Assembly: GCA_045807285.1 (NCBI GenBank)
Contig: JBJMHR010000021.1
Location: 90,612 to 154,611 of the forward strand
Reading direction: 5' to 3'
Source: Actinomycetes bacterium
GTDB taxonomy: Bacteria > Actinomycetota > Actinomycetes > JAWWOW01
DNA length: 64,000 bases
Position numbers and translations under genes: made by a program. Under the pieces are notes generated by a model. The model was given only the letters and a program-made list of their open reading frames with translations, was not told the origin of the DNA and did no database searches. Shown piece by piece: positions 3,416 to 40,118 of this stretch (the stretch's first letter is position 1; the number at the start of each line of letters is the position of its first letter).

Positions 3416-3431
3416 CTCGCGACCTTAGAAG

Positions 3432-19010: not shown

Positions 19011-19457
19011 ATGACCGCCATGAGACCTGGCTCACCAGATTCACCATGCTTACGCGATGGCAACCTATTGCTGACCATCGGCCTCCCGGCTCTTCTCGTG
19101 TCGGTTCCCACCGCACGAGGGTTTGCCGCCCACGCGTGCGAAGAGTTCGGCGTGAGCACTGACTCGACGGAACGCGTCGAGCTCGTTGTATCCGAACTGT
19201 CGGCGAACGCTGTCAAGCATGCGGGTGGCGCCTTTCACCTCGCGCTGATCAAGACGTCCGCCGGAGTGCTCGTGGAGGTCGAAGACCCGCTCACCTGTGC
19301 TCCCCCGGTCGCCAGCCGTCCGGATGCAGATGCCGAGACCGGTCGAGGGCTGCAGGTTGTCGAGCAGCTATCCGACGACTGGGGCTGCGAGGCGCTGCCG
19401 GACGGCAAGCGCATGTGGGCACAGGTGCGGGATCAACCGCTCGTGACGACGACCTGA
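19011..19457 (+). CDS. Anti-sigma regulatory factor-like Ser/Thr kinase (RsbW-like HATPase_c)
   Basis: ELVVSELSANAVKHAGG (N-box) and GRGLQVVEQLSDDWG (G-box), about 148 aa. Confidence 0.65.
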   Translation: MTAMRPGSPDSPCLRDGNLLLTIGLPALLVSVPTARGFAAHACEEFGVSTDSTERVELVVSELSANAVKHAGGAFHLALIKTSAGVLVEVEDPLTCAPPVASRPDADAETGRGLQVVEQLSDDWGCEALPDGKRMWAQVRDQPLVTTT

Positions 19458-24509: not shown

Positions 24510-25240
24510 GGCGCGAGGGCGGCTTGCTTGACCGCTTGCTTCGCGCTGTCTGCTGTTTTGTTCGCTGCCGTCACCACGCCGGAGGCCTGCCGAACGACAT
24601 CGGAGGTGACCTTGTCGTTGGCGGCGATCGACGCGTGCACCGAGTCGACGACCTTCGAGGGCCCGGTGACCAGTGGGTGCGCAGCGACCGCGTTGTACAG
24701 CACTTCCAAGGCCTGCAACGCACGGATGCGTGCCTTGCCATAGTCGGCGCGGGCGCTCCGCACACCCGTCACGGCGTGCGCGATCGAGGCGAGCTGAGCG
24801 CGGGTCGGTCGAAGCGCCTTGTCAGCAGCACGGGAGGCAGCGAAGGACGCGGCACAGTCGCCGGCCTGGCCGGCTGAGTAGGCCCGCCCGATCTGACGTT
24901 GGACCGCAGCGATCTCGGCCGTGAAGCGGCCCATGGCGGGACCCAGCCCGGACTGTGAGCCCCGCGCGCGCACCGCTGCCGCGGCGGCGTCGAGCGCGCC
25001 GAGGGCATCTTCGACCGATGCCTGCGCCCGCACGAGATCCGGCGGGCGGCCGGCGTTTCGCCGCACTGAGCCGATCGTGCCGGGCGCCGGCGGTGCCGGG
25101 GCCGGTGCCGTCGTGCGAGTGGTCGGGGCGGCCTGTGGCTTCAGGGCATGCCCGCTCGATCCGCTGCCGGCACCACATGCCGTCACGCCGAGGGCGATTC
25201 CCGCGACCACAGCTGCAGCGCTGCGGGTGAGGGTGCTCAC
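24497..25240 (-). CDS. Ala-rich secreted lipoprotein, function unknown
   Basis: The GTG start at 25240 overlaps the epimerase stop (GTGA). The lipobox is LGVTAC. The rest is alpha-helical and Ala-rich. The ORF-track N-terminal extension to 25522 is rejected as R/H-rich junk. Confidence 0.5.
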   Translation of the reverse strand: MSTLTRSAAAVVAGIALGVTACGAGSGSSGHALKPQAAPTTRTTAPAPAPPAPGTIGSVRRNAGRPPDLVRAQASVEDALGALDAAAAAVRARGSQSGLGPAMGRFTAEIAAVQRQIGRAYSAGQAGDCAASFAASRAADKALRPTRAQLASIAHAVTGVRSARADYGKARIRALQALEVLYNAVAAHPLVTGPSKVVDSVHASIAANDKVTSDVVRQASGVVTAANKTADSAKQAVKQAALAPCLV

Positions 25241-26265
25241 TTGTCCCTGACCTGAGGTGTCGTGATGTCGACGCTCTGGGCGCCGACCATGCGTTCGGGC
25301 TTGGCCAACCACCGGACGTCGCGGCGGTGCCGATGCCAATGCACCTGCTCGGCGATGCCGGCGCGCAGTGAGACGTGCGGCGTCCAGCCCAACAACTGTG
25401 CAGCTCGACTGATGTCGGCGGCTGTCTTGTCCACGTCGCCCGCTTGCGCAGAGACGGTTTCGCTGTCCACCGCCAGGCCAACGGCCTGCGAGATGATCCG
25501 TAGCAGTTCGTTCACCGTGCATGCGCCGCCGCCTGCGATGTTGACGGTGGTGCCTGGCGGCAGGTCGGTCGCCTCGCCCGCACGGATCGTGGCAGCGACG
25601 GCATCGAGCACGAAGGTGAAGTCGCGGACCTGCTCCCCGTCACCGAAAACCATGGCCGGGTGCCCGTCGAGTGCCGACTCGATGAACCGGTGGATGCCCA
25701 TGTCCGGCCGCTGCCGCGGTCCATAAACGGTGAAGTAGCGCAACGAAGTTGTCGGGACGCCGTAGTTGGCGGCGTACAGATGACACAGGTGTTCGGCCGC
25801 GAGCTTGGTCACGCCGTAGGGGCTGTGCGGTGCCGGTAAAGCGTGCTCGTGGGTCGGGTAACCAGCGGCGTTGCCGTACACCGACGAGCTCGACGCGTAG
25901 ACGAACCGCGTCAGGGAGTCAATGTGCCGGCACTCTTCGAGGAGGCGTTGCGTGACCATCACGTTCTGTTCGACGTAGCCCCTGAACCCTCGCTCCCACG
26001 ACGGCCGCACACCGGGTTGGCCGGCCAGGTGGAAGACGACCTCGGCCCCGGACAGGATCGAGCGCAGTTCGCTGCGACCGAGGTCGCGAGCGAGGAACTG
26101 GAAACGTTGGTGCGTGAGGTACGGCGCGATGTTCTCCTGCTTCTGCGCCGGGTCGTAATAGGGGGTCAGCGCGTCCACGCCGACGACATCGTGCCCGGCG
26201 CCGAGCAGCCGCTCGACCAGAAAGCTCCCGATGAAACCGGCCGCCCCCGTGACGACGACTCTCAT
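25237..26265 (-). CDS. NAD-dependent epimerase/dehydratase (UDP-sugar 4-epimerase-like, extended SDR)
   Basis: VVTGAAGFIGSFLVERL Rossmann motif. YASSSSVYG and the YGVTK catalytic YxxxK. Confidence 0.85.
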   Translation of the reverse strand: MRVVVTGAAGFIGSFLVERLLGAGHDVVGVDALTPYYDPAQKQENIAPYLTHQRFQFLARDLGRSELRSILSGAEVVFHLAGQPGVRPSWERGFRGYVEQNVMVTQRLLEECRHIDSLTRFVYASSSSVYGNAAGYPTHEHALPAPHSPYGVTKLAAEHLCHLYAANYGVPTTSLRYFTVYGPRQRPDMGIHRFIESALDGHPAMVFGDGEQVRDFTFVLDAVAATIRAGEATDLPPGTTVNIAGGGACTVNELLRIISQAVGLAVDSETVSAQAGDVDKTAADISRAAQLLGWTPHVSLRAGIAEQVHWHRHRRDVRWLAKPERMVGAQSVDITTPQVRDK

Positions 26266-26280
26266 GTCGGTTCCCCCGGC

Positions 26281-28008
26281 CTACTCGGCCCGCACGCGGC
26301 GCGTACTGCTCGTCGCCGGTGGCAGCCGTCGCAGCTTTGCGGCGGCGGACCGCCCGGTCGGCTGCTCCTCCTCCTGCTCGACCGCTCGCGGACGAGGTAC
26401 GCCCGCGTCGAGGTCGATGGACACCCGTGGGCCGAGCGGTGCCCAACCCTTCTCGCCCAGGCCGACCAGACCCATGCAGGGCAGGTTCAGCCGGCGAAGA
26501 TCGAGCACCGATGCATGCAGTCCGGCACGCGTTGCGTGCCCGACCCGGGCCACGACAACGCTCGAGTCGGCGGCGCTCACGAGCGGGATGACCTCGCCGG
26601 AGCTCATCATCGGCGGGCTGTCGACGATGACGATGCCGACCTCAGCCAGCTGCGCGAAGATCCCGGTCAGTGTTGCCCGCATGAACGACTCCGCGGGGTT
26701 ACGGTCCGAGCCGCCCGATGGCAACAGGTAGCTGTTCGGACCCACCTCGACGAGGAGCTCGCGCGCATCGTGCGCCGTACCGTCAACGAGCTCAGCGAGC
26801 CCCGGGCGTGCCAACGTCCGGTGCACCCGGTCGAGCGTGCGATCGCGGAGGTTCGCCGAGACGACGACGACCGTTCGTCCCTGGTTCGCGAGCGACTGTG
26901 CGAGGTTCAACACAAAGGTCGTCTTGCCGCCGCCGTCCTCGGGACTCAGGATGGCGAGCACCTTGACCGACGTACCGAGGCCCGCGAGCTGCAACGCGCT
27001 GCGGGTCCGTTGGATCGCTTCGGCCGCAGGGCTGTGCGGCTTGGCGTTGACGGCGATACGGCCACCTCGAACGCTGGCCATGGTCGGAATCACGCCGAGC
27101 AGCGGCAACCCGGTGAGGGCTTCCGCCTCGGCCGAGGACGCGAGCCGCCGACGCAACGCCTCGACCACGCACGCGGTACCAACGCCGACGAGCAGTCCGA
27201 GCACGAGCCCGGCAACGAGCAGCACACGGCGGCTCGTCGGGTGCTGCACGGTGCGCACGATGACCGGGCCGGCGACGGAGGTCGGCAGGCCCTTCAGCGA
27301 CTGCTGTGCCCGCGCGCTGCTGAGTGCGGAAACGGTGGACTCGTACGCCTTGGTGGCGACCTGTAGCTGCGCAGCGGTGAGCGCGCTCGTGACATGGCCG
27401 GCGCTGGCCTGGCGCTCTGCGTCAGCCTGACGCGACCAGGCAGCGACCTCCTTGAAGTCGCTGTTGGACTGCGCCGTGAGCGTTGCCACCAGCGACGCTT
27501 GTGCCGCCGTTGCCGCCTTGTTCCGACTGGCGACGTACGTCGCGACGTACGCGCGGATCACCCGACCGGTCAACCCGGCATCGTGATCAGTGAAGGTCAG
27601 GTCGACCCACGTCGTCCCGGTGACAGGCTTGGCGCTGAGCTTCGACAGGCCGCTCACACCTGAGTTCGCCTTGTTTGTCTGGTCGAGGTGACCGGCACGT
27701 GCGCCCAGTGACTTCAGCGCAGCCGCCATCACCGTCGGGTCGGCGTACCGGGCGACACCGTTGCCGCTGTTGCCGCTTCGCGTGGTCGACGTACCGGCGG
27801 AGGCCGCCTTCTCCGAGCCGAACGCCTTGATGTCCACGCGTTGCGAGGCGGCGTAGGTGCGCGTGTTCGTCGTGACCAGCGGGACCACAAGGGCACCGAG
27901 CAGGCCGCCCAGGGCCACCGAGACCAGCACGATGACGCGATGGCGCCAGGCCGCACCGAGGTAGTCGCCGAGCGCCGGCGTGGGATTCATCGACTCATAG
28001 GTCGCCAT
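26281..28008 (-). CDS. Polysaccharide co-polymerase / BY-kinase (Wzc/CpsD-like) homolog lacking C-terminal Tyr cluster
   Basis: N-terminal TM + Wzz-like periplasmic region + second TM. P-loop LSPEDGGGKTTFVLNLA and Walker B VIVDSPP. The C-terminal 60 aa contain no Tyr. Confidence 0.8.
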   Translation of the reverse strand: MATYESMNPTPALGDYLGAAWRHRVIVLVSVALGGLLGALVVPLVTTNTRTYAASQRVDIKAFGSEKAASAGTSTTRSGNSGNGVARYADPTVMAAALKSLGARAGHLDQTNKANSGVSGLSKLSAKPVTGTTWVDLTFTDHDAGLTGRVIRAYVATYVASRNKAATAAQASLVATLTAQSNSDFKEVAAWSRQADAERQASAGHVTSALTAAQLQVATKAYESTVSALSSARAQQSLKGLPTSVAGPVIVRTVQHPTSRRVLLVAGLVLGLLVGVGTACVVEALRRRLASSAEAEALTGLPLLGVIPTMASVRGGRIAVNAKPHSPAAEAIQRTRSALQLAGLGTSVKVLAILSPEDGGGKTTFVLNLAQSLANQGRTVVVVSANLRDRTLDRVHRTLARPGLAELVDGTAHDARELLVEVGPNSYLLPSGGSDRNPAESFMRATLTGIFAQLAEVGIVIVDSPPMMSSGEVIPLVSAADSSVVVARVGHATRAGLHASVLDLRRLNLPCMGLVGLGEKGWAPLGPRVSIDLDAGVPRPRAVEQEEEQPTGRSAAAKLRRLPPATSSTRRVRAE

Positions 28009-28029
28009 GGTTCCTCCATGTGGACGAAG

Positions 28030-28932
28030 TCATGCGATGCCCCACCCGTCGAACGGGCCGCGCACGTAGGGACGGATACGTCGGACGTCAACGGCCAGCC
28101 GGGACTGCAACTCGGCACGTACGTCCGGGGAGATCTCCACCATGTCTTGCAAGTCCGGTTGCAGCGCTTCGCGCCGTCGCAATCGGGTCTTGACGGTGCC
28201 TGGGAGCGCCCGCGCTACGCCTTGCAACACGGGATGACCGACAGCGCGTGGTCGGGTACGGAAGCGCGTCGCTCGGTTCAGGTGTGGTACGTCGTTGCGG
28301 GGCACCCATGACGTGTCGACGCCCAGGAAGCCGAACACTTCCCGCATCGCCGCGCGTGGCTCCTGCCAGAGCCATTCCGACGTGATCACGCAGACCCGAC
28401 CGGCCGGGTAGTGCTCCAACCACTGATCGAGCTGCAGCGCGTAGGAGCTTGCGTCCACGTACTTCGGTTGGCCGAGCAGCGCGCCGCCCGCGGAGCCGTA
28501 CCGGCCGATCCGCGACCAGCCCGCCGGCGGCGTGCCGACCACCGCGCGGCGCACGTCGTGCTCGTATTGCGACCGCATGCGCTCGATCGGCTCGCGTACG
28601 ACGTACACCAGGCGCGCTTGCGGAACGACCGACGCGGCACGCCCGGCGACGCCGGCGAGCTGCGGGCTCTGCGTGTACGTGACGGAGGCCTCACCGCGAA
28701 CCGCTTTATGTGCGCCCTTGGTGAACTGCTGCGCGTACCACGGCACGCCCTGGCGCCAGTTGCGCTCAGCGACGAAGAAGTGCAGCTCCTTCGGCTGGGA
28801 CATGAAGATCTCGGGGTGCTCGGACAGGGCCTGGTGCAGGCTCGTCGACCCGGCACGCATCGCGCCGATCACAAGGAGGTTGGGCAACGTGGTTGCGCTT
28901 GCGGCGGCGGTCATAGCTTGCTGGACTGCCAT
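28030..28932 (-). CDS. Sulfotransferase family protein (paralog 3)
   Basis: LLVIGAMRAGSTSL. KELHFFVAERNWRQGVPWY. LVYVVREPIERMRSQY. Confidence 0.8.
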   Translation of the reverse strand: MAVQQAMTAAASATTLPNLLVIGAMRAGSTSLHQALSEHPEIFMSQPKELHFFVAERNWRQGVPWYAQQFTKGAHKAVRGEASVTYTQSPQLAGVAGRAASVVPQARLVYVVREPIERMRSQYEHDVRRAVVGTPPAGWSRIGRYGSAGGALLGQPKYVDASSYALQLDQWLEHYPAGRVCVITSEWLWQEPRAAMREVFGFLGVDTSWVPRNDVPHLNRATRFRTRPRAVGHPVLQGVARALPGTVKTRLRRREALQPDLQDMVEISPDVRAELQSRLAVDVRRIRPYVRGPFDGWGIA

Positions 28933-30092
28933 TTCGTGTCCACGTGCAACGGCGCGAGACGCACGATCGCCTTGGGCACCGACTGCAGGGCCGGCCCGGT
29001 CACCTCGAACCGCCGCGCTGGGTGCCAGGGAAGGATGTCGCGCTTGCGGTCGAATACGCCGACCCAGAGGCAGTAGCTGCCGCGCGGCAGCGGCAGGTGG
29101 TCGATCACGCAGGAGATCTCTGTCTCGCCTGCGGCGAGCTGCTCATCGCGTCGGACGACGAAGATCGGGGTGGCCGTTCCTTGGCTGACGCCGATCACGA
29201 CGTTGGCCTGCGTGGCCCACGGTGCCTCGACGATGAGTGACACTGTTAGTGATTTGCCCGTCGTGGGCACGCTGCGTCCGGGACCGCTGACCTGCGCCTT
29301 GAGCAGCTGCAGCAGACCGTCGACCGGGATGTTGAGCTCGGCCGCCTCCTCCACCGAACGGCGGTAGTGCCCGAGCACCTCGGAGACCGGCCCGTCCTGC
29401 TGCACCTCGCCCTGGTCGAGCCAGATCCCCCTGGTGCAGGTCGCCTCCACCGCTGCGAGGTCGTGGCTGACAAACACCAACGTCGTACCGGTGGACAGCA
29501 CTTCGCGCATCCGGGTGAGGCACTTCTGCTGGAAGGACGCGTCGCCCACGGCGAGCACCTCGTCGACGAGCAAGATGTCCGGCTCGAGGAAGGCCGCAAC
29601 GGCGAAACCGAGCCGCATCTGCATACCGCTCGAGTAGAACTTCACCTGCCGGTCGATGGCCTCGGGGATCTCCGAGAAGTCCACGATCTCGTCGAACCGG
29701 CGCGCGACCTCCTTGCGCGGCAGCCCGAGCAGCGAGCCGTAGACGTAGATGTTCTCCCGACCGCTCAGGTCAGGAGAGATGCCGGCCCGCACCTCGATGA
29801 GCGCGCCTACCCGCCCAGCGGCCGCGACACTGCCGGCGTACGGGTACATCACGCGCGTGAGCAGCTTCAACAACGTGGACTTGCCGGAGCCGTTCGCGCC
29901 GAACAGGCCCACTGACTCGCCGGGCTCGGCCCGTAGGTTGATGTCGCGCAGCACCATGCGGTAGCGCGTGTCCAGCTCGCCCTTCATCTTGCGCGACATC
30001 CGGTCGACGTGGTCGCGCAGCAACATGCGATGACGGTCAGCCCGGAATCGCTTCCACACGTGGTCAGCGCGGATTTCGCCCTCACGCAACAT
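28911..30092 (-). CDS. wzt: ABC transporter ATP-binding protein, O-antigen/teichoic-acid export type (Wzt-like) with C-terminal carbohydrate-binding extension
   Basis: Walker A GANGSGKSTL. Signature YSSGMQMRLGFA. Walker B ILLVDEVLAVGD. About 150 aa beyond the NBD resembles Wzt_C. Confidence 0.85.
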   Translation of the reverse strand: MLREGEIRADHVWKRFRADRHRMLLRDHVDRMSRKMKGELDTRYRMVLRDINLRAEPGESVGLFGANGSGKSTLLKLLTRVMYPYAGSVAAAGRVGALIEVRAGISPDLSGRENIYVYGSLLGLPRKEVARRFDEIVDFSEIPEAIDRQVKFYSSGMQMRLGFAVAAFLEPDILLVDEVLAVGDASFQQKCLTRMREVLSTGTTLVFVSHDLAAVEATCTRGIWLDQGEVQQDGPVSEVLGHYRRSVEEAAELNIPVDGLLQLLKAQVSGPGRSVPTTGKSLTVSLIVEAPWATQANVVIGVSQGTATPIFVVRRDEQLAAGETEISCVIDHLPLPRGSYCLWVGVFDRKRDILPWHPARRFEVTGPALQSVPKAIVRLAPLHVDTKWQSSKL

Positions 30093-30936
30093 CGGCGATG
30101 CCGCCTTCGAGCCGTTTGAAGAGCCAGTAGCCCACGACGAACAGCGAGCTTGAGACCAGGGTGGCCACGCCGAGCATCGGCCAGTCGGGCGCTTGGTTGT
30201 ACAGAACCGTCCTGCGGTAGCCGTCGATGACCACCGCGAGCGGGTTGATCACCTGGTAGAGCGTTCGCATGCTCGCAGGGACGTCGGCCAGGCTGTAGGC
30301 GACAGGGGTGGCGAACAGGCCCAGCTGCAGAAAGACCGGCAATGCGTACCGCAGGTCACGCAGGTACACGATGGTGATTGCCGCGAACAGCGTCAGCCCG
30401 AGCGTCAGCAGGACTTGCACGATCATGAACAACGGCACATACACCGAGGCGGGCTGCGGCGAGGTCTGGAAGATGAAGAACAGCGCCACGAGTCCGCTCA
30501 GCGCCATAGTCGTGTCGACGGCCGCCACCAGCATGGACCCGATCGGGAAGACCTCCCGCGGGCAGTAGACCTTGTTCAGCACCGGCACGTTGTTGACCAG
30601 GCTGAGACCGCCGACGTTCAGGCTGCTCGAGAAGAACGTCCACGGCAGCAGACCGAGGTACGAGAAGAGCGCATAGTGAGTGGTGCCGTGGTTGACGTGT
30701 GCAATGCGCTGAAAGAACAAGGTGAAGACGAGCATCAGAGCTACCGGCGTCAGTAGCGCCCAGGCAACGCCCAAGAAGGCCTGCTTGTAGCGCACCCGGT
30801 AGTCGCGTTCGGCCAACGTCCAGATGAGCTCGCGCGATTTCCAGAGCTCACGAACGGACGTGACGACGCCCGTGCGACGTCGAAATCGCAGGGATGCGGG
30901 CGGGCCGTCGAGGAGAGTGGCCGCGGCGGTGGTCAC
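30082..30936 (-). CDS. wzm: ABC-2 type transporter permease (Wzm-like)
   Basis: Six TM segments. The LAERDYRVRYKQAFLGVAWALL ABC-2 N-terminal motif is present. It overlaps the wzt start by 11 nt. Confidence 0.85.
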   Translation of the reverse strand: MTTAAATLLDGPPASLRFRRRTGVVTSVRELWKSRELIWTLAERDYRVRYKQAFLGVAWALLTPVALMLVFTLFFQRIAHVNHGTTHYALFSYLGLLPWTFFSSSLNVGGLSLVNNVPVLNKVYCPREVFPIGSMLVAAVDTTMALSGLVALFFIFQTSPQPASVYVPLFMIVQVLLTLGLTLFAAITIVYLRDLRYALPVFLQLGLFATPVAYSLADVPASMRTLYQVINPLAVVIDGYRRTVLYNQAPDWPMLGVATLVSSSLFVVGYWLFKRLEGGIADVA

Positions 30937-31048
30937 GCTCGAACAGAGACAGGGCGGTCTGCCCTGATACGTCGCAGCCGGCGTGTATCACTCAGTGGCT
31001 GTCTCGGCTCTAGTCGGCGCTGACACAAGTGCACGACCAGGAGGCGAG
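30937..31048. promoter_or_regulatory. Divergent intergenic control region between wzm-led minus operon and pqqD-like-led plus operon
   Basis: 112 bp. Perfect hairpin/palindrome CAGGGC-ggtct-GCCCTG at 30950-30966. AGGAGG SD at 31038-31043. Confidence 0.4.
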
Positions 31049-31447
31049 ATGCTGCGGCCGCGCAAGTTCTTCGGATCGACGCAGTCCGCTCGCAACCGAC
31101 GCGCAGAAGAGCCGGCGGCACGACGCTGCTGGGCTACGCCGTCGGTGCACACCTTGATGGACATCGCGAAACTTCCTCGTGCCGGCGACTACGACCTCGA
31201 GCGGCGTACACCTGTCGTGCGCGAGTGGGACCTCCTGGGTTACGGCGTCCTCATGACGCTCGACGGTGTACTGCACGCGCTCGACCCGATCGCGTACCGC
31301 GCCTGGCAGCTGCACAAGCAGCACCGCCCGGACGATGAAGTCGCTTTCGCACTCACGGCCGAGTGGGAGGTCGACTACGACCTCGCGCACCGGGGCGTCA
31401 CCGCCGTGCTGAGCAGACTGGGCGAACCCGCTGCAGCTGGTGTTTGA
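31049..31447 (+). CDS. PqqD-family (RRE) peptide-chaperone-like protein
   Basis: ATG at 31049 with an AGGAGG SD at 31038-31043. The C-terminal 80 aa (WDLLGYGVLMTLDGVLHALDPIAYRAWQL...DDEVAFALTAEWEVDYDLAHRGVTAVLSRL) fit the PqqD fold pattern. The ORF-track start at 30983 lacks an SD. Confidence 0.6.
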   Translation: MLRPRKFFGSTQSARNRRAEEPAARRCWATPSVHTLMDIAKLPRAGDYDLERRTPVVREWDLLGYGVLMTLDGVLHALDPIAYRAWQLHKQHRPDDEVAFALTAEWEVDYDLAHRGVTAVLSRLGEPAAAGV

Positions 31448-32321
31448 CGTGATCGAGCTCACCGGCATACCGACCCAACGGGGCCAGCTCGAGGACCTCT
31501 GGCTGGAAGTCATGTTCGACTTTCTGGGCACCACCGTCTGTCTGGTCTCAGCGAACATCGAGCACATCCAGCACTGGTGCGCGGTCTACTCCGAGTTCCG
31601 CGTCCCCCGGCGCTCCGCCGACGTCACGGTCCGGGTGAGCGATCGCGTCTCGAAGATCGCGCCGCGTGGTGTGACACTGGAAACCGGCGAAAGCATCTCG
31701 GTCTGGGACGGACGGGCACCGTTGATGCCGCCGCTGCGCGCACCGGGACTGGACCGCTACATCTACCTGCAGGGTGCCGCAACCGGCCGGGCCGGGCATG
31801 CAGCACTGATGATCGGCGGCCCCCGCTCGGGCCGTACGACGCTCGCCACCTCATCTGCCGCACGCGGGGCGCGGCTGCTCGCCGACGACCTGATCCCGCT
31901 CGACCCCGACGACCTCCTCGCCATGCCGTGGCCCAAGGCGCTTGCGCTCCCCAGCGACGTGCTCGTACAGCTCGGCGTGGACCCCAGCCTGCCCGGCCTG
32001 GTTCCCTTCGTCACCCGGGCCGGTGACCTGCGCTGGCGGATCGCACCGTCCGCACTCTTCGGCAAACAACTCGCGCGGGTGCCAACCGACGTTGCGGCCG
32101 TCGTGTTCATGGAGCCGACCGGGCAGGAGCCAACCGGACTGAGCGACGTCTCCCCCGGCGAGGCCTTCGAACGGCTCGTGCGGCATCTCGAGGTCCGGCC
32201 GGTCGACCGCGAGCGGACCACCGACGCGCTCGTGCGGCTCTGCCGGCGCGTGCCCACGCTCGCGTTGCGGCCCAGCACGCCTGCAGACGACGCCGCGCTC
32301 ATCGATGCGCTGCTCCGCTGA
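31440..32321 (+). CDS. HprK-related kinase-like protein (HPr kinase C-terminal domain homolog)
   Basis: MIGGPRSGRTTLATSSAARGARLLADDLIPLD matches the HprK P-loop/GxRLVADD signature (GDSGVGKSE...GHRLVADD). An 8-nt overlap with the upstream PqqD-like gene indicates translational coupling. Confidence 0.6.
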   Translation: MFDVIELTGIPTQRGQLEDLWLEVMFDFLGTTVCLVSANIEHIQHWCAVYSEFRVPRRSADVTVRVSDRVSKIAPRGVTLETGESISVWDGRAPLMPPLRAPGLDRYIYLQGAATGRAGHAALMIGGPRSGRTTLATSSAARGARLLADDLIPLDPDDLLAMPWPKALALPSDVLVQLGVDPSLPGLVPFVTRAGDLRWRIAPSALFGKQLARVPTDVAAVVFMEPTGQEPTGLSDVSPGEAFERLVRHLEVRPVDRERTTDALVRLCRRVPTLALRPSTPADDAALIDALLR

Positions 32322-32340: not shown

Positions 32341-33528
32341 GTGACACAGACCGTCGCACCTGCGACATCGCGTGTGCAGGGCGCTGCACGCGTCCGGGTC
32401 CTACACGTCATCACACACCTCGACCACGGCGGCGCCCAGGACAACACCCTGCTGACGGTCGCCGGGCTCGACCACTCGGCATACGTCGTCGACGTCGCCG
32501 CCGGACCGGGCGAGCTCGAGGCTTATGCCCGGACCATCGCGCACGACGTGCGCATCCTGCACAGCCTCAAGCGCCCGCTGCTCGATCCCGGCGCCATCCA
32601 GACATTTCAGCAGCTCGCCGCCATGAGCCGCGACTACGACATCGTTCACACGCACGGCTCCAAGGCCGGCGTGCTCGGTCGGCTGGCCGCGCGTATGTTG
32701 CACGTGCCTGTCGTCGTACACACGGTGCACGGGATGCCGGTGAACGACTTCATGGGCCGAACACAGCGACGGATACTGCTGGCAGCCGAACGTACAGCGG
32801 CTCGGTGCGCCGACGCGATCATCTGCGTCTGCGAGGAGAACCGGCAGGAAGCGCTCGACCTTCGGATCGCGAAGCCACGGCAACTGCGCGTCGTCGTCAG
32901 CGGCATCGACGAACGATCGGTCACCGCGGGCGTCGGGGCGCGCGTGCGGGCTGAGCTCCGCATACCGCCAGACGCGCCCGTCGTCGGCAGTGTCACGCGG
33001 CTGATGGAGCAGAAGGCACCCCTCGACCTGATTGCGGCGATGCGCACGGTCGTCGAGGAGCGCGGCGATGCGCACTGCATGGTCGCGGGCGAGGGGCCGT
33101 TGTACGACGCCGTCATAGCGGCCGCCCGGGACCACGCCCGCATCCATGTGCTCGGTTACCGCGATGACATCGCGGACATCATCGCTGCGACCGACGTGGC
33201 GGTGTACAGCTCGCTATGGGAGGGCCTCGGGCGCGCGCTGACCGAGTCCGTCCTAGCCGGCCGCCCGGTGGTCGCTACCGCCGTAAACGGCGTGCCGGAC
33301 CTCGTGCGCGACGGCGTGACGGGATATCTCGTGCCACCCCGTGACCCCGCGCTGCTCGCGCGTCGCACCCTGGATGTGCTTGCGCTACCGGACCGTGGCG
33401 TGGCGATGGGCGCGGCCGGCGCGGCGAGCGTCCGGGGCAAGTACGGCGTCGAACAGATGGTTGCCGGGATCGATGCGACCTACCGCGAGCTACTGGAAAC
33501 CAAGAACGTTCGGGTGCCGCCATGTTGA
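32341..33528 (+). CDS. Glycosyltransferase family 4 (GT-B, retaining)
   Basis: GTG start with a GAGGAGG SD. GGAQ N-terminal motif and the E-x7-E region (EGLGRALTESVLAGRPVVATAVNG). 395 aa. Confidence 0.85.
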   Translation: MTQTVAPATSRVQGAARVRVLHVITHLDHGGAQDNTLLTVAGLDHSAYVVDVAAGPGELEAYARTIAHDVRILHSLKRPLLDPGAIQTFQQLAAMSRDYDIVHTHGSKAGVLGRLAARMLHVPVVVHTVHGMPVNDFMGRTQRRILLAAERTAARCADAIICVCEENRQEALDLRIAKPRQLRVVVSGIDERSVTAGVGARVRAELRIPPDAPVVGSVTRLMEQKAPLDLIAAMRTVVEERGDAHCMVAGEGPLYDAVIAAARDHARIHVLGYRDDIADIIAATDVAVYSSLWEGLGRALTESVLAGRPVVATAVNGVPDLVRDGVTGYLVPPRDPALLARRTLDVLALPDRGVAMGAAGAASVRGKYGVEQMVAGIDATYRELLETKNVRVPPC

Positions 33529-34829
33529 TGACGCTCCTCGCCGCAACGACGGCAGCGCTGCCGCTGCTCGTGCCACGTGGGCCCGGCAACACCGCGCCGG
33601 TCGACATCTTCGCGGCGCTTTTCGTGCTCGCAGTCGTTGTGCAGACCCTGCTGTCACGTCGGCGCGGCATCGTCGTGCCCGCCGCCGGCCCGCTGTTGCT
33701 GATCGCGCTCGTCAGCGCCAGCGCAGTGCTCTTCAGCGTCGCCCCCGGCACCGGGCTGCTGAACCTGCTGATCGAGGCATACCTCGTCGCACTGCTCTGG
33801 GCGGCGTGCAGTGAGCTTCGTGGCCGACCGGACCGGATGGCCGTGATCACCTCGGTCTGGGCGGTCGCCGCCGTCTTCTGGGCCTTCCTGCTGGTAGGAA
33901 CGCAGTGGCATCTGTTGCCCGGGGGCCTGCAGCACCTGCTGCTCGAGAACGACAGCTCAGGACGTGCCGCAGCCGCCGCGCGCAATCCCAACCTCGCCGC
34001 GAGCTTCCTCGTCACCTCTGTCTTCGTTGTAATGGCCTCGCCCTGGCCGCGATCGCGCCTCGTCCGCGGCGGTATCTACGCCTGGCTGATGACAGCGGTC
34101 GTGGTGTCGGGCTCCAACGGCGCGCTGCTGGGAGCCGCCGCGGGCGGCGTACTTCTGCTGGCCTTGCGGATCATCCGCCGGTCGTCACGGATCGGTCGGT
34201 CGCTCGTGCGCGCCTCGGTCGCAGTTGCCGCCGGCATCGCGATCTTCGCCGTGGCTGAGGCATCGCCCACCGTCAACCAGGCGACAGCGGACAAGATCGC
34301 GCAGAGCAGTCACAGCAACGGCGCCTTGCGCGACAACGTCGGGCGCATCAACAACAGCGTGTCGACACGGGTGTCCATCTGGTCGTCAGCGCTGCACGGC
34401 GGCTTCGACCACAGTGCGCTCGGCGTCGGGGTCGGCGAGGCGCAGACGATCCAGGTCGGCGGCCAGGCGCTCGGCAAGAGTCTGCACAACGACGTGCTCG
34501 CCTTCCTGCTCGAGCGCGGCGTCGTCGGACTTGCTGCTCTCCTGCTTCTCGTCGCCGTCGTGCTGCGGTGGAGCAGCCGACTCGCGCGGGCCGGACCCGT
34601 GCGCATCGACGGCCGACTGTGGCGCCTGCAAGGGCTGGCGGCAGCAGTCACCGCGAACCTCGTGATCTCGCTGACCCACGAGTCATACCACTTCCGGCAC
34701 CTGTGGCTGTTGCTCGCTCTCGTGTGGGCCGCTTCCGATCTCGTCGCGGTGAGGTCACCGGCACGAGTCCCCGCACCGGCGCGATCGTTCGTGCCGGTGC
34801 CGATGCGGAGCATCCGTGTACCGGCCTGA
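33522..34829 (+). CDS. O-antigen ligase/polymerase (Wzy_C) family membrane protein
   Basis: About 11 TM helices. Wzy_C loop with GSNGALLG...SLHNDVLAFLLERGVVG. A 7-nt overlap with the upstream GT4 gene. Confidence 0.7.
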   Translation: MLMTLLAATTAALPLLVPRGPGNTAPVDIFAALFVLAVVVQTLLSRRRGIVVPAAGPLLLIALVSASAVLFSVAPGTGLLNLLIEAYLVALLWAACSELRGRPDRMAVITSVWAVAAVFWAFLLVGTQWHLLPGGLQHLLLENDSSGRAAAAARNPNLAASFLVTSVFVVMASPWPRSRLVRGGIYAWLMTAVVVSGSNGALLGAAAGGVLLLALRIIRRSSRIGRSLVRASVAVAAGIAIFAVAEASPTVNQATADKIAQSSHSNGALRDNVGRINNSVSTRVSIWSSALHGGFDHSALGVGVGEAQTIQVGGQALGKSLHNDVLAFLLERGVVGLAALLLLVAVVLRWSSRLARAGPVRIDGRLWRLQGLAAAVTANLVISLTHESYHFRHLWLLLALVWAASDLVAVRSPARVPAPARSFVPVPMRSIRVPA

Positions 34830-35724
34830 CCGCAAAGTCGGCTTGCTCACCGGTGCGGACGGGCCGGCGTTCGCGATCGACCAGGCCACGCTCGACGACA
34901 TCGGCCTCGAGGTTGTCGAGACGAACGGAGCCCTGCCATTGCAGCTGCCGCGACGACAGGTCGTCGTCAGCGAAAGCGCGCTCGAAGACACCAAGACAGC
35001 CGACCGGCTGGCGTCGTTAGCCCTCGGCGGCCTGCACGTCATCCGGTTCGCGGACTACTACGAGCGGCGGCAACGCCGCGTGCTGCTGGATGCGGTGGAC
35101 GAACGCTGGTTCTTCTTCGACACGCCCCTGCGGGCGCGACCGGCGTACTCCATCTTCAAATCGGTGACGGACCTGGTCGCGGGTCTCGTCGGCTCGTTGC
35201 TCGTGCTGTTGGTGATCCCGTTCGTCTGGGTTGCCGTCCGGCTCGACGACGGCGGCCCGATGCTGTTCCGGCAGGAACGCGTCGGCCTTCGCGGCCACAC
35301 CTTCGACATCTGGAAGTTCCGCACGATGCACGTCGACGCCGAGGCCGCCGGTCCATCGTGGGCAAGCGCAGCCGACGAACGCATCACTCGCGTGGGTCGG
35401 TTGCTGCGACTCAGCCGGCTCGACGAGCTGCCGCAATTCTTCAACGTCATCGCGGGCCAGATGAGCCTGATCGGACCGCGGCCGGAACGCCCCGTTTTCG
35501 TCCGTACGCTCGGTCGAGCCATCGCGTACTACGACCGGCGGCACATGACCAGGCCCGGGATCACGGGCTGGGCCACCGTGCGGTTCGGGTACGGCGACAG
35601 CGTCAACGACAAGTGGCGCTCACACGCCTACGACCTGTACTACCTGAAGCACCGGTCGATCCGGCTCGACCTCGAGATCCTCGCCCGCACCGCCATCGTG
35701 ATGCTGCTCCGGCGCGGGCAATGA
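34816..35724 (+). CDS. Polyprenyl-phosphate glycosyl-1-phosphate transferase (bacterial sugar transferase, WbaP C-terminal-domain type)
   Basis: One TM. Contains PMLFRQERVGL, FDIWKFRTM, DELPQFFNVIAGQMSLIGPRP and RPGITGWA motifs (PF02397). Confidence 0.85.
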   Translation: MYRPDRKVGLLTGADGPAFAIDQATLDDIGLEVVETNGALPLQLPRRQVVVSESALEDTKTADRLASLALGGLHVIRFADYYERRQRRVLLDAVDERWFFFDTPLRARPAYSIFKSVTDLVAGLVGSLLVLLVIPFVWVAVRLDDGGPMLFRQERVGLRGHTFDIWKFRTMHVDAEAAGPSWASAADERITRVGRLLRLSRLDELPQFFNVIAGQMSLIGPRPERPVFVRTLGRAIAYYDRRHMTRPGITGWATVRFGYGDSVNDKWRSHAYDLYYLKHRSIRLDLEILARTAIVMLLRRGQ

Positions 35725-36578
35725 TCGCCACACGTGCGGAAACGCCGCGGATCTCCGTCGTCATGACGGTCTACAACGGCGAGCGTTACATTTCCGACGC
35801 CATCGAGAGCATCCAGCAACAGAGTCTGCGCGACTTCGAGCTCATCGTGGTGAACGACGGCTCGACCGACCAAACCACGGGGATCCTCGCTGCTCTCGAC
35901 GACCCGCGCGTGCACGTCATCCAGCGCCCGCACGTGGGGCGGGTGCCGGCGCTGAACGAGGCACTGTCGCGGTGTCGCGCGCCGTACGTCGCGAACCTGG
36001 ACGCCGATGACGTGGCCCTACCGGGTCGGCTCGAATGGACCACGGAGTTCCTCGACGCACACCCCGACACAGTCGCGATCGGTTCGGGTTGGGAGCCCTA
36101 CGTGCAGTCGCCCAGCCGGGCCCCGCGACGGCTGCCGCGCAGTGACCGCGCGATCCGGTGGAGCTTCTTGTTGCGCAACCCGATGTTCAACAGCTCGGTC
36201 ACATATCGCACCGACGCACTACGCGCGATCGGTGGATTCTCGATGGCGTACGCCGACCGCCTGCACGACGCCGATGCGGTGTTGCGCATCGCAAGCCACG
36301 GCCGGCTGCGCAACCTCGATCAGGCACTGTCGGCGCGCCGGCTGCATGAGCTCCAGCACTTCGCCCGAGTCGACGCCGGTCGCCGGGCCGCGCTGCACGC
36401 TCAGATGCGGTGGCGGGCGGCAAGCCTGCTCGGCTTTCCGCCGTACCTCCGACCGCTGGCCTACACCGTCGCGACCGTGGCAGCGACCCGGTCGCTATTC
36501 GTCATCGGCGTGCTCGGTCGCAACGGCCGGGTCGACCGACGGCGGGCGGTCCGGCCGGCACCTGCCGAGGCGCGGTGA
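35721..36578 (+). CDS. Glycosyltransferase family 2 (GT-A)
   Basis: ATGA overlap start. ISVVMTVYNGERYISDAIESI...ELIVVNDGSTD and DADD motifs. Confidence 0.85.
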   Translation: MIATRAETPRISVVMTVYNGERYISDAIESIQQQSLRDFELIVVNDGSTDQTTGILAALDDPRVHVIQRPHVGRVPALNEALSRCRAPYVANLDADDVALPGRLEWTTEFLDAHPDTVAIGSGWEPYVQSPSRAPRRLPRSDRAIRWSFLLRNPMFNSSVTYRTDALRAIGGFSMAYADRLHDADAVLRIASHGRLRNLDQALSARRLHELQHFARVDAGRRAALHAQMRWRAASLLGFPPYLRPLAYTVATVAATRSLFVIGVLGRNGRVDRRRAVRPAPAEAR

Positions 36579-37762
36579 AAGTTCTCTACGTCTGCCTCGA
36601 CCCGGGCATCCCGGTGGGGTCGGCAAAAGGTGCATCGGTGCACGTCTGCGAGATGATCCGGGCGCTTGCGCAAGAGGGTCATGAGACGGCGCTGATCGCC
36701 CGTGAGGTCGTGGCCACCCCTGTCGCGCCGAGCCTGGTCACCGAGCTCGGCCCGCCGCCGCACGGTCGTCGCCTGCCACTCATCGGGGCGGCGGTCATGC
36801 GGTACGACGACAGGCGGGTTCGCCGTGCAGTGTCGGCAGCACTACGCCGGTTCGGACCTGACCTCGTCTACGAGCGGTACGCCCTCGGGCGCTCGGCGGT
36901 TGGCTCCATCGCGCGCAGGCACGGCGCCCGCCGGCTGCTCGAGGTCAACGCGCCGCTCGTGGCCGAACGCGCGCTCGTTGCCGGACGGAACCCGAGTGCG
37001 GCTGCAACCGCTGCAGAACAGGCGACGTGGCGTAGCGCCGACCTCGTCGTCGTGCCGTCCCATCCACTCGCCGACCTCGTCCGCAGTGCGGGGCAGCGAA
37101 ACGTCGTCGTCGCGCCGAACGCCGTCGACCCAGATCTGTTCACGCCTACGACCGGCTCGTCGACCGCGCTGCGCGAAAGGCTCGGACTGACCGACCGGCT
37201 CGTGGTCGGCTTCGCCGGTAGCGCCCGGATCTGGCACGACCTGCCGACGCTGGTTGCCGCGGTCGCGATGCTGCCAGCGCGGATGCGCGCCGCTCTGCTG
37301 GTGATCGGCGCGTCCCCACCCGAGGACGTCGTGTCCGATGCGACGCGTCGCGGCGTTGTACTCATCGCGACCGGGCCACTGCCCCATCAGGCCGTACCCG
37401 CACATCTGGGTTGCGTCGACGTCGCGGTCGCAAGCCTGCGGCCGGATCCGAACCTGTCCTACTTCTCGCCGTTGAAGGCCCTCGAATACCTCGCGTCCGG
37501 TTGCCCGACGGTGGTCGCAGACGTCGGCGACCTGCGCGCGCTCGCCGAATGCGGTGTCGCGATGTCCTATCGTGCCGGCGAAGCTGCGAGCCTGGCAGCG
37601 GCAGTGACCAGAGTCGCCAGCGATGCGAGTCTCCAACAACGGCTCCGCGAGGCGGGCCGTGCGTATGCGTTGACGCGCACATGGCGCAACGTCGCTGCGA
37701 TGGTGGTACGGGCGAGGAACGACTCCATCGCCCGCACCGATGAGCCAGTGAGCACCTCATGA
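36575..37762 (+). CDS. Glycosyltransferase family 4 (second copy)
   Basis: GTGA overlap start. MKVLYVCLDPGIPVGSAKGASVHVCEMIRAL N-terminus. C-terminal EX7E-like region (SPLKALEYLASGCPTVVADVG). Confidence 0.8.
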   Translation: MKVLYVCLDPGIPVGSAKGASVHVCEMIRALAQEGHETALIAREVVATPVAPSLVTELGPPPHGRRLPLIGAAVMRYDDRRVRRAVSAALRRFGPDLVYERYALGRSAVGSIARRHGARRLLEVNAPLVAERALVAGRNPSAAATAAEQATWRSADLVVVPSHPLADLVRSAGQRNVVVAPNAVDPDLFTPTTGSSTALRERLGLTDRLVVGFAGSARIWHDLPTLVAAVAMLPARMRAALLVIGASPPEDVVSDATRRGVVLIATGPLPHQAVPAHLGCVDVAVASLRPDPNLSYFSPLKALEYLASGCPTVVADVGDLRALAECGVAMSYRAGEAASLAAAVTRVASDASLQQRLREAGRAYALTRTWRNVAAMVVRARNDSIARTDEPVSTS

Positions 37763-38895
37763 GCTCCGCAAGGCCGTCAAAGGTCGCGGCTGTCGCCATG
37801 TCCGCCGGTGTGCTGTTCGGGCTCATCGGCTGCGCAGGCTCGCCGCACCCGAAAGCGCCGGTCGTGACGACACCGCCCACGGCGTCCGCGTCGCCGACAC
37901 CGTTGCGGACTGCGGGCTTCGCGTTCGGCTTCTACTCGGCCGGGTTGCGGCTCGTGGACTGTTACGGCACCTGCCGGCCCGGCACGAAGGAGTACGCCGA
38001 GCAGCAGGCCAACCGGCAACGGATGGCGGACCTGCAGGCAAAGCACGTCACGTTCGTGACGAACAACGAGAGCCTCGTGAAGGTGTACCGCCACTACCCG
38101 GATGCGGTGCTGACCTACCTCAACGAGCTCCATGCGCACCACATCCGGGTGTCGTACTCCGCCGCCTCGGGCGCCGGCATGTGGTTCACGCATGGTGTGT
38201 TCGATCCGACCGCCGCGCGAACGGCATTCGCCCGGACCGACCTGAACCACGACGGGGTGTCCGACCTCGACGGCCGACTGGACTTGCTCTACCAAGGCCA
38301 CGAGGTGCTGGAGTGGGCCACACACGCGCAACGCGTGCAGATCTACCGCGTGGCCAAGAAGTGGTTCCCGCACACGCCGGTGGCCTTCTACTACGCCGGC
38401 ATGTACCGGCCGTTCGACCCTGCCTGGGCGAACCGGTCACATGCCGGTGGCCCCGGCGGCGTCTGGCGTGACTACGCGTACGGCCCTGGCGAGGCCGACG
38501 TCGTCCTCGTCAACGTGCGCCGCAATGCAACACCGGACACGCTCGACAACGTGGACGAGGGGGGCGGCGGCTTCAATGCGGCCGCCTTCGCCGCAGCCGC
38601 ACGCAAGACTGTGGACGTCGTGCACCGCAGCACACCGAGTGTGCCGATCTTCGTCTCGACGAACATCGCGAGCGACACTGCGATGGCGAGCAATCCGGCG
38701 GCGATGTGGAGTGCCACCGATCTCACCTCGTGGTACCACGCGCTTGCTGCCATTCCGGGTGTCGCCGGAGTGCAGCTGCGCAGCTACGGGCGCTTCACGT
38801 ATGACCTCGCGAATCCGCGCTACTCCGGTCAACAGGCCACCTGGAGCAGCCTCGGCGCGCTCGCCGCGCGGCACCCGACCAAAGGATCGCTATGA
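37759..38895 (+). CDS. Secreted lipoprotein of unknown function (possible glycan-processing enzyme)
   Basis: ATGA overlap start. Lipobox LIGC. 378 aa with a globular W/Y-rich domain. No motif recognised. Confidence 0.55.
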   Translation: MSSARPSKVAAVAMSAGVLFGLIGCAGSPHPKAPVVTTPPTASASPTPLRTAGFAFGFYSAGLRLVDCYGTCRPGTKEYAEQQANRQRMADLQAKHVTFVTNNESLVKVYRHYPDAVLTYLNELHAHHIRVSYSAASGAGMWFTHGVFDPTAARTAFARTDLNHDGVSDLDGRLDLLYQGHEVLEWATHAQRVQIYRVAKKWFPHTPVAFYYAGMYRPFDPAWANRSHAGGPGGVWRDYAYGPGEADVVLVNVRRNATPDTLDNVDEGGGGFNAAAFAAAARKTVDVVHRSTPSVPIFVSTNIASDTAMASNPAAMWSATDLTSWYHALAAIPGVAGVQLRSYGRFTYDLANPRYSGQQATWSSLGALAARHPTKGSL

Positions 38896-40118
38896 CGATG
38901 GTCTACGTGCTCGGGGCCTTTCCCAAAGTCTCCGAGACATTCATCTCCGGAGAAATCGCCGAGCTACGGCGCCGGGGCGTAGACGTCACGGTCTTCTCGC
39001 TGAGACACCCCCTGGAGCCGGGGCCGGCGCAGCCGGAGGACGCCGCGATCCTCGACTGCACCACCTACCTACCGGTCGGGCGGCGCGGGACGTTGTGCAT
39101 GGCGGCCGAGGTGATGCGACTGTTCGCTGAGCATCCCGGTCGTGCCACCGGCACAGCGTGGTGGGCGCTACGCCGCGCGATGACCGCGATGAGCAGGGGC
39201 GACCTGCTTCGATTCGCGCAGGCCGCCTACATCAGCCGCCGACTGCCCGAGTCAGCGGAACACCTGCACGCGCACTTCGCGCACGGTCCGGCCACGTGCG
39301 CGGCCATGGTGTCCCGGCTCTGCGGCGTGCCCTACTCGTTCACCGCACATGCGCGGGACATCTTCGAGTACGCCGACAAAAGGTCCGTGCGCGACAAGGT
39401 AGCCACGGCACGAGTTGTCATCGCGATCAGCGAGCACGGTGGTCGTCGCGTTGTGGAGCTCGCAGGTGACCGCCATGCCGACCGCGTTCAGATCGTGCCC
39501 AACGGCATCGACTTGACCCGGTTCGCGCGGCGAGCGACCGAACCGACCGGGCCACCCCGCGTGCTGTGCGTGGGTCGCTTGGTGGAGAAGAAGGGCCAGG
39601 ACACGCTGCTGCGCGCAATCGGGATGCTCGCCGACGAAGGGCGCATGGTGCAGTGCGAGCTCATCGGTGCGGGTCCGCTCCGGGCCGAGTTGGAGCGGAC
39701 TGTCCACTGGCTCGGCATCGGCGCCCACGTGAGCTTCCGTGGTTCGCTCGATGCCATCGGAGTGCGGGCGGCGTACGACGCAGCAACCGTGTTCGCGCTG
39801 CCTTGTCAGACCGACTCTCACGGCGACCAGGACGGCCTGCCGGTGAGCCTCGTCGAGGCCATGGCGGTGGGCGTCCCGGTGATCAGCACCGGGATCGCTG
39901 GGATCCCGGAGCTCATCACCGACGGCGTCTCCGGGTTGCTCGTCGAGCCACACGACGCGCGCGGGTTGGCGGACGCGATTGCGCGCGTGATCGACGAGCC
40001 CGCCCTGCGCCGCTCGTTGACACATGCAGCACGGCAGGTCGCCGAGGCATACGACCGGACCCTGACCACCCAGCGCCTGCTGCAGGCCACCGGGATGGAG
40101 TACGCCCGTGCCCAGTAA
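38892..40118 (+). CDS. Glycosyltransferase family 4 (third copy, WcaL-like architecture)
   Basis: ATGA overlap start. N-terminal FPKVSETFISGEIAELRRRG. C-terminal DGLPVSLVEAMAVGVPVISTGIAGIPE. Confidence 0.8.
   Translation: MTMVYVLGAFPKVSETFISGEIAELRRRGVDVTVFSLRHPLEPGPAQPEDAAILDCTTYLPVGRRGTLCMAAEVMRLFAEHPGRATGTAWWALRRAMTAMSRGDLLRFAQAAYISRRLPESAEHLHAHFAHGPATCAAMVSRLCGVPYSFTAHARDIFEYADKRSVRDKVATARVVIAISEHGGRRVVELAGDRHADRVQIVPNGIDLTRFARRATEPTGPPRVLCVGRLVEKKGQDTLLRAIGMLADEGRMVQCELIGAGPLRAELERTVHWLGIGAHVSFRGSLDAIGVRAAYDAATVFALPCQTDSHGDQDGLPVSLVEAMAVGVPVISTGIAGIPELITDGVSGLLVEPHDARGLADAIARVIDEPALRRSLTHAARQVAEAYDRTLTTQRLLQATGMEYARAQ

Follow-up and report, generated by a model that had tools for sequence, protein, structure and literature searches.

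The pairing of a PqqD-like protein with a relative of the HPr kinase/phosphorylase (HprK/P) recurs in the curated systems HPr-rel-A (TIGR04352/TIGR04353) and SynChlorMet (ScmC/ScmD). PqqD-fold proteins, or RiPP recognition elements (RREs), serve as the main class-independent marker in the mining of clusters for peptides that are made by ribosomes and modified after translation (RiPPs), and their HprK-like partners are assumed to be peptide kinases. HprK homologues of lasso peptide clusters phosphorylate the C-terminal serine of the precursor (PMC8498205). Here, we analyzed a pair of this kind, ORF1 and ORF2, in a 64-kb stretch from an Actinomycetes bacterium (GCA_045807285.1, contig JBJMHR010000021.1, positions 90,612 to 154,611; hereafter the window), where the two genes open a glycosyltransferase/sulfotransferase operon. 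Judged by homology and by the context of its relatives, the most plausible origin of the pair lies in peptide-modification pairs of the RiPP type, from which it would have moved into a glycan operon. With regard to function, we tentatively favour an RRE-(pseudo)kinase recruited from RiPP machinery, serving as a peptide- or protein-binding accessory or as a regulator of glycan assembly, a reading to which we give somewhat less than even weight. An earlier note on this DNA had instead read the pair as an HPr-rel-A-like module that may phosphorylate or nucleotidylate a peptide.

A coupled PqqD-like/HprK-like gene pair

ORF1 (31049..31447, plus strand) encodes 132 aa between an ATG at 31049 and a TGA ending at 31447, and the sequence reveals a Shine-Dalgarno motif, AGGAGG (31039..31044, plus strand), 4 nt before the ATG. 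An upstream extension to GTG-30983 has a third-position GC content typical of non-coding DNA (GC3 = 0.45, compared to 0.77 within ORF1), and we therefore take 31049 as the true start. ORF2 (31440..32321, plus strand) encodes 293 aa from a GTG at 31440 to a TGA ending at 32321, and overlaps ORF1 by 8 nt at GTGTTTGA. The NCBI product for ORF2 (P0001) has 290 aa, which implies a start at GTG 31449, 1 nt past the ORF1 stop. Given that the genes of relatives overlap too, by 4 nt (L005, L006, L013 and the P0012 locus) or 20 nt (L001), coupling is a conserved feature, although the exact ORF2 start is uncertain; the tight coupling holds with either start. Both reading frames are intact and display a GC phase of the coding type. 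The strong Shine-Dalgarno motif, the 8-nt overlap and the translational coupling reported in the earlier note are thus all borne out.

The assignment of ORF1 to the PqqD fold, also proposed earlier, was recovered by several routes. Pfam PF05402 aligns to aa 69-125 (E 1.6e-4) with 22.4 bits, 1 bit short of its gathering cut-off of 23.4; it is present in the precomputed annotation of all eight non-identical homologues, and NCBI names the ORF1 product 'PqqD family protein'. When compared to solved structures in the PDB, the family profile (A3, 13 members) matched the RRE TbiB1 (E 4e-5, residues 14-80 of 91), as well as TfuB1 (E 0.0035) and PqqD (3g2b, E 0.048). Among the 13 family members scanned with NCBIfam, eight match lasso_PqqD_Strm, a model of lasso PqqD chaperones, and two weakly match TIGR04353 (PqqD_rel_X; E 0.0077), to which ORF1 of the window has no match at E<=0.1. 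ORF1 is accordingly predicted to be a genuine RRE-fold protein that belongs to no curated subfamily and has the lasso peptide B1 chaperones as its nearest relatives. Its RRE core (aa ~55-125) is preceded by a TPxVHTLLD motif (aa 30-38), which is kept in all family members, and by a variable, basic N-terminus (aa 1-29), whose RRKxxGR motif is restricted to close relatives.

ORF2 is far more divergent. A Pfam scan gave no match, and NCBIfam TIGR04352 (HprK-related kinase A) aligned to aa 105-249 with an E-value of 6.4e-9 and 35.3 bits, where the equivalog cut-off is 200. Profile-profile alignment (hhalign) of the ORF2 clade with 40 outgroup proteins of the HprK-related kinase A type extended over the full length (273 columns; probability 100%, E 2e-46), and a hidden Markov model (HMM) built from these outgroup proteins alone found ORF2 as its sole match among the 642 stop-to-stop ORFs of the window (E 8.8e-49). 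ORF2 has the fold of the catalytic P-loop domain of HprK/P. At the sequence level, HprK/P itself does not match (E about 1), nor does TIGR00679 (hpr-ser), and the FomB model reaches only E 0.22. Pattern searches were run for the Walker A motif GxSGxGKS and for (I,L,M)E(I,V)RG(I,L,M,V)G(I,V)(I,L,M), the HprK/P signature defined in PMC2937029; ORF2 has neither of the two, nor does any clade member. We conclude from profile comparison that ORF2 is related over its full length to the HprK-related kinase A superfamily, from which it has diverged greatly, and that it has a predicted PEPCK/HprK fold. The HprK-like identity claimed in the earlier note, including P-loop geometry, is thus upheld by the full-length homology and by the match to the outgroup HMM.

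The ORF2 clade is small and remote from its relatives. It comprises about 20 sequences among 1.8 billion representatives, all from actinomycete metagenome-assembled genomes (MAGs; labelled Actinomycetes, Frankiaceae or Mycobacteriales). Matches to ORF2 number 13 among 5.8 billion proteins. When the profile was searched exhaustively against 1.84 billion representatives, it returned 11 proteins at E<1e-30, followed by a gap and then by some 6,000 distant relatives. The clade occurs in a single one of 185,579 GTDB species representatives; the genome scan yielded one ORF2 locus and the metagenome scan one outgroup locus (L010). The 40 distant relatives that were scanned all match TIGR04352, and many also match the models for kinase B (36), HprK/P (20), ScmC (11) or FomB (5; best E 3e-11). 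L010 lies at positions 1-2801 of a metagenome contig, and encodes the C-terminus of a SPASM radical-SAM protein, an HprK-like protein, a Cys-rich ORF of 62 aa, a second HprK-like protein and a PqqD-like protein. This nearest fetched outgroup locus of ORF2 has the composition of a RiPP-type cassette like SynChlorMet and HPr-rel-A. Two further candidates did not hold up: P0294, which resembled a PqqD-HprK fusion, is a frameshifted read-through, and a 274-aa protein of an Actinotalea locus is not HprK-like.

Decay of the P-loop

The feature most strictly kept in the superfamily is the one that varies within the ORF2 clade. In the 40 outgroup proteins, which share a mean identity of 20%, the Walker A Gly-Lys constitutes the sole invariant columns, and GK is present in 40/40. 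In the window, secondary structure of the model, alignments and a tree place a degenerate Walker A loop, GGPRSGRTT, at aa 126-134 of ORF2 (31815..31841, plus strand), with Gly131-Arg132 at this site and the predicted strand-loop-helix geometry retained. Lysine is found at this position in 10 of the 20 clade members; the others carry Arg (five, including the window), Leu (two), or Gln, Thr and Val (one each). The column has an entropy of 1.98 bits, which exceeds the variability of 66% of all columns, and a neighbour-joining tree of the clade implies at least seven independent losses of the lysine. Four P-loops are no longer recognisable (ADASLRTA, GEEATRTS, GFGVDTTS and ERALVSPL). Likewise, a histidine that is near-invariant in the superfamily (LHAAA) is replaced by Gln111 in the window and by Gln in most of the clade.

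Conservation is high in the rest of ORF2, where alignment A1 has 47 invariant columns, and includes residues conserved specifically in the clade (W46, W89, P97-P98, R200, H249 and P272). The PqqD-like gene is retained beside versions of ORF2 that have lost the lysine, as in the window (Arg), P0026 (Leu) and P0023 (Gln). In P-loop enzymes, replacement of this lysine by arginine usually spares nucleotide binding but severely impairs phosphotransfer, which is abolished by Leu, Gln or Val. Repeated loss of the Walker lysine in an otherwise conserved protein is most simply read to mean that selection in this clade maintains something other than catalysis. The two motifs on which the earlier note had relied, GGPRSGRTT and GARLLADDLIPLD (aa 143-155), are indeed present in ORF2; what had been overlooked is Arg132 at the site of the Walker A lysine, and this substitution, together with the repeated losses, speaks against the active kinase proposed there.

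The glycan locus and its probable regulatory element

Downstream of the pair, the operon continues (32341..41028, plus strand; Pfam) with genes for a family 4 glycosyltransferase (GT4), a Wzy_C-family membrane protein, a Bac_transf phosphoglycosyl transferase, a GT2, a GT4, a 378-aa protein of no assigned function, a GT4 and a sulfotransferase. The pair is thus the head of a 10-gene plus-strand operon, as the earlier note had stated. The divergent operon (19433..30936, minus strand; Pfam and NCBIfam) encodes Wzm, Wzt, a sulfotransferase, a protein resembling polysaccharide co-polymerases/bacterial tyrosine kinases (PCP/BY-kinase-like), an epimerase/dehydratase, a 341-aa protein of no assigned function, a 757-aa protein and an Ig/Laminin-G surface protein.

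This arrangement is conserved. The same architecture recurs in the orthologous loci L001, L003, L005 and L006, down to 42% ORF2 identity; the gene order of the downstream operon is repeated in L001, L003, L005 and the P0012 and P0030 loci, and the divergent operon is syntenic in L001, L003 and L005. In all seven loci with usable flanks (the window, L001, L003, L005, L006, and the P0012 and P0030 loci), ORF2 lies directly upstream of GT4, Wzy_C and Bac_transf genes. In six of them wzm/wzt lie opposite ORF2, a position taken by a sulfotransferase gene in L005. The P0012 locus is minimal: wzt and wzm are all that remains on one side, while the other side has the PqqD-like gene, ORF2, GT4, Wzy_C and Bac_transf, after which comes a module with an extracytoplasmic function (ECF) sigma factor. 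This locus defines the core association of the pair with GT4, Wzy_C, Bac_transf and wzm/wzt. The PqqD-like gene immediately precedes ORF2 in eight of the ten loci with a judgeable upstream region, so that the link of the pair to homologous glycan loci, on which the earlier note had made its proposal depend, is found.

The divergent intergenic region contains a perfect palindrome, TGATAC-N14-GTATCA (30965..30990), 59 nt upstream of ORF1. It is unique within the window, and 100 shuffles gave 0 matches. Exact copies, with a spacer of N13/14, are found at the same place in L001 (9540-9565), L003 (9569-9593) and L005 (4681-4706), loci whose proteins share only 40-70% identity. The palindrome probably serves the pair-led operon as an operator or as part of its promoter. 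A second conserved block, (G/A)ACAGAG, is located ~15 nt before it.

At least five sulfotransferase genes are present in and around the locus (16194-17111, 18083-18928, 28030-28932 on the minus strand, 40108-41028 and 45395-46246), which makes a sulfated glycan the very probable product of the locus. The 341-aa gene of the window is replaced in L003 by a bifunctional, fused ATP-sulfurylase/APS-kinase (2171-3886). Taken from gene content, the locus points to a heavily sulfated actinomycete polysaccharide.

The unannotated 757-aa protein (22236..24509, minus strand) had been put forward as a third member of the module. According to the earlier note, a nucleotidyltransferase (NTP_transf_5, PF14907) is associated with HPr-rel-A, and the note had described the protein as a fusion of this domain with a kinase-like one. 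This description is partly right: four of 45 homologues match NTP_transf_5 (best 5.5e-5) and others match Pkinase (13) or NDK (4), but the protein of the window reaches only E 0.22 for NTP_transf_5 and has more domains than described. Its high-confidence model (predicted local distance difference test score, pLDDT, 91.8) displays an N-terminal Rossmann/methyltransferase-like domain, three more domains that resemble NTP_transf_5, NDK and protein kinases, and a helix of some length at the C-terminus; an invariant N..HSSD motif of the family resembles the NDK active site. The family, for which there is no Pfam model, has more than 120 members in MAGs of the Actinomycetes, Planctomycetes and Gemmatimonadota type, mostly in polysaccharide loci, and occurs with no PqqD-like/HprK-like neighbour in five other contexts (L007, L008, L009, L011 and L012). 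Its gene in the window comes seventh in the minus-strand operon, and 6.4 kb separate it from the divergent promoter. Because the family is found elsewhere in many phyla without the pair and its gene is distant from it, the 757-aa protein belongs to the locus and is not a co-inherited third partner.

Further genes of the window deserve mention. The PCP/BY-kinase-like protein (26281-28008, minus strand) carries a Walker A motif, GGGKTT. The 341-aa ORF (24497-25522, minus strand) has a GC phase of 0.75/0.64/0.70, which is atypical compared to its neighbours, and its counterpart in L001 has 251 aa; its start or frame may be mis-set. A surface protein (16724-18076, plus strand), which has a signal peptide, is rich in Pro/Ser/Thr over one region and ends in an LPSTG sortase motif, is flanked by sulfotransferase genes on both sides. 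A 610-aa secreted protein (41025-42857, minus strand), in which a Pro/Ser-rich linker connects two homologous repeats of ~250 aa, matches neither Pfam nor NCBIfam; L005 and L006 have a counterpart at the same place.

Role of the pair and relation to known systems

How could an RRE and a degenerate HprK-like protein serve a glycan locus? We propose that the pair descends from RRE and HprK-like partners of RiPP-type peptide-modification cassettes and became a fixed, co-translated accessory of a sulfated-glycan locus with an ABC-transporter export route. Phosphotransfer would have been relaxed or lost in the clade, as suggested by Arg132 in the window, and a stoichiometric cytoplasmic complex would for this reason be the likeliest mode of action. 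We infer that ORF1 and ORF2 interact, with the RRE binding an extended peptide segment and ORF2 providing a binding or scaffolding surface that possibly retains a phosphate or nucleotide pocket. Rather than a dedicated precursor peptide, the bound segment would more likely be part of a pathway or surface protein, namely a tail or loop, and the complex could take part in glycan initiation or polymerisation as an assembly factor or a regulator. The earlier note had named a regulator or primer of the glycan pathway as its alternative, and this comes nearer to the role favoured here than its module of peptide modification.

Several observations weigh against such a non-catalytic accessory. The canonical GxxxxGKT loop is kept in half of the clade and the model of the window protein preserves the strand-loop-helix geometry, so some members, or all of them by way of arginine, may still transfer phosphate or use pyrophosphate/phosphate like HprK/P. 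The AlphaFold2 model of ORF2 is itself of moderate confidence (pLDDT 75.7, from 13 sequences). In the divergent L014 and P0030 loci, ORF2 is present and the PqqD-like gene is absent or uncalled; ORF2 can therefore apparently function or persist alone. A peptide shorter than 25 aa, the lower limit of our small-ORF screen, or one encoded elsewhere would have escaped. Finally, the literature searched documents no free-standing PqqD-like protein with a function outside RiPP biosynthesis. The same search found no paper describing a PqqD-like/HprK-like pair with exopolysaccharide, and queries on HPr-rel-A, TIGR0435x and RRE-Finder with HPr kinase returned nothing usable.

If the pair were instead an active RRE-guided Ser/Thr kinase, ORF1 would bind a segment and ORF2 would phosphorylate it, as the lasso peptide kinases do. 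Its target would be a small, unrecognised precursor of a glycan-decorated RiPP-like product, or else a pathway or surface protein, for instance the tail of the PCP/BY-kinase-like protein, the LPSTG protein or the Ig/Laminin-G protein. Compatible with this are the homology of ORF2 to the HprK-related kinase A superfamily, the P-loop geometry, the kinship of ORF1 with lasso B1 chaperones and the GK[ST] motif kept in 10 of 20 clade members, as are the nucleotidyltransferase-like/kinase-like protein and the sulfotransferases of the locus, since genes of these types are also companions of lasso clusters in Firmicutes. We nevertheless consider it unlikely, given Arg132, the seven or more losses of the Walker lysine, the four degenerate P-loops and the replacement of the superfamily histidine by glutamine. 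The search for a substrate points the same way. No conserved ORF of 25-130 aa was found outside known genes in five syntenic loci (12-47 kb of the window compared to four others), the screen returning only alternative-frame shadows of known genes; the 84-aa ORF at 15867, ~15 kb from the pair, lies beyond the reach of the fetched loci in this comparison. The basic N-terminus of ORF1, which the earlier note had suggested as a substrate, is missing in the distant orthologues of L003, L005 and the P0012 locus. A conserved Ser/Thr target in the C-terminal tail of the PCP/BY-kinase-like protein was rejected as well, these tails being unconserved (no Tyr in the window and L001, YY in L003 and L005). 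Among the locus genes scanned with Pfam and NCBIfam (19.4-42.9 kb), there is no lasso cyclase, protease, radical-SAM or other RiPP core enzyme, and only glycan, transport and sulfation functions were found, plus proteins of no assigned function.

A small conserved ORF just upstream of the ECF sigma gene (43400-44113) was also considered as a precursor, and discarded for its likeness to a fragment of sigma region 2 (WLRLT...WL.TAR.E). It lies at ~43180-43511 (plus strand) in the window, at 18367-18696 in L001 and at 19436-19663 in L003; L001, L003 and the P0012 locus all have the trio of small ORF, sigma gene and downstream ORF behind their glycan operon.

ORF2 might also be a kinase of a small molecule or of the glycan itself, with ORF1 as structural partner; phosphate would then go to a sugar, to a lipid-linked intermediate or to the chain's non-reducing end. 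ORF2 would in this case be a functional counterpart of the WbdD-type chain terminators of Wzm/Wzt pathways. The superfamily does include a small-molecule kinase, given that five of the 40 outgroup proteins match FomB, and the locus employs the ABC-transporter route with a 393-aa Wzt, in which Pfam ABC_tran covers residues 48-179 and ~200 C-terminal residues are unassigned. However, the decay of the P-loop argues against essential kinase chemistry, the PqqD family has been described only as peptide chaperones, and the protein-kinase-like domain of the 757-aa protein would fit a WbdD-like role better, and we regard a small-molecule or glycan kinase as distinctly improbable.

To a bolder proposal we assign only a slight probability: that an RRE has been recruited outside of peptide natural products, and that the RRE-pseudokinase complex couples a peptide segment of a protein to sulfated-polysaccharide assembly. 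Such a complex might be what selects or primes an acceptor protein or peptide, resulting in a proteoglycan-like and possibly phospho-linked glycoconjugate, or it might sense peptides and thereby switch the initiating transferase or the polymerase. That the pair is a decaying passenger, a remnant of a RiPP cassette at the operon head that is being lost and has no glycan role, is very improbable: despite eroding catalytic residues, a PqqD-like gene missing in two divergent loci and the extreme rarity of the clade, the reading frames are intact with a coding-type GC phase, position and coupling persist down to 42% identity, the 47 invariant columns are partly clade-specific, a conserved palindrome lies upstream, and the minimal P0012 locus keeps the pair without most other genes.

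An accessory or regulator of glycan assembly derived from an RRE-kinase pair would carry implications beyond this locus. RRE-based genome mining can flag loci that are not RiPP clusters, and orthologues with and without the lysine provide a natural series on the role of an HprK-like protein after kinase loss. The locus, rare and heavily sulfated, points to an unrecognised accessory factor of ABC-transporter-type glycan assembly in actinomycetes. The practical weight of these points is limited by the tiny size of the clade, which is uncultured and known from metagenome-assembled genomes alone.

Among the systems described, HPr-rel-A (TIGR04352 and TIGR04353, with the kinase B of TIGR04355) resembles the window in its adjacent PqqD-fold and HprK-related P-loop proteins, and ORF2 aligns over its full length to proteins matching TIGR04352. 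However, membership in this system, as suggested in the earlier note, is not supported: scores are far below the equivalog cut-offs (35 compared to 200 bits for ORF2), ORF1 lacks a TIGR04353 match, the window contains neither a kinase-B-like nor a second PqqD-like gene, and the Walker lysine and the histidine are lost. Moreover, HPr-rel-A is a stand-alone cassette, whereas the pair of the window sits in a polysaccharide operon.

SynChlorMet shows the same pairing, with ScmC as the HprK-like and ScmD as the PqqD-like protein, and the outgroup includes both ScmC-matching proteins (11/40) and, in L010, a cassette of this kind. In the window locus, by contrast, a radical-SAM/SPASM enzyme and a small Cys-rich ORF are both missing, and the neighbours of the pair are glycosyltransferases, Wzm/Wzt and sulfotransferases. 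Compared to HprK/P and PEP carboxykinase, ORF2 lacks the Walker A lysine, and it has neither the HprK/P signature nor a sequence-level match to HprK/P.

The lasso peptide clusters are related to the pair through both partners. The B1 RREs TbiB1 and TfuB1, together with the lasso_PqqD models of NCBIfam, are closest to the ORF1 family profile, and the HprK-homologue kinases of the paeninodin type, which modify the C-terminal serine of the peptide (PMC8498205), belong to the same superfamily as ORF2. What separates the window from these clusters is the absence of a lasso cyclase (Asn-synthetase-like), a B2 protease and a precursor, along with the degenerate kinase motif. Both folds and their pairing are already known. 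New, in addition to the lack of a detected RiPP core enzyme or precursor, are the recurrent loss of the Walker lysine and the fixed place of the pair in a polysaccharide operon.

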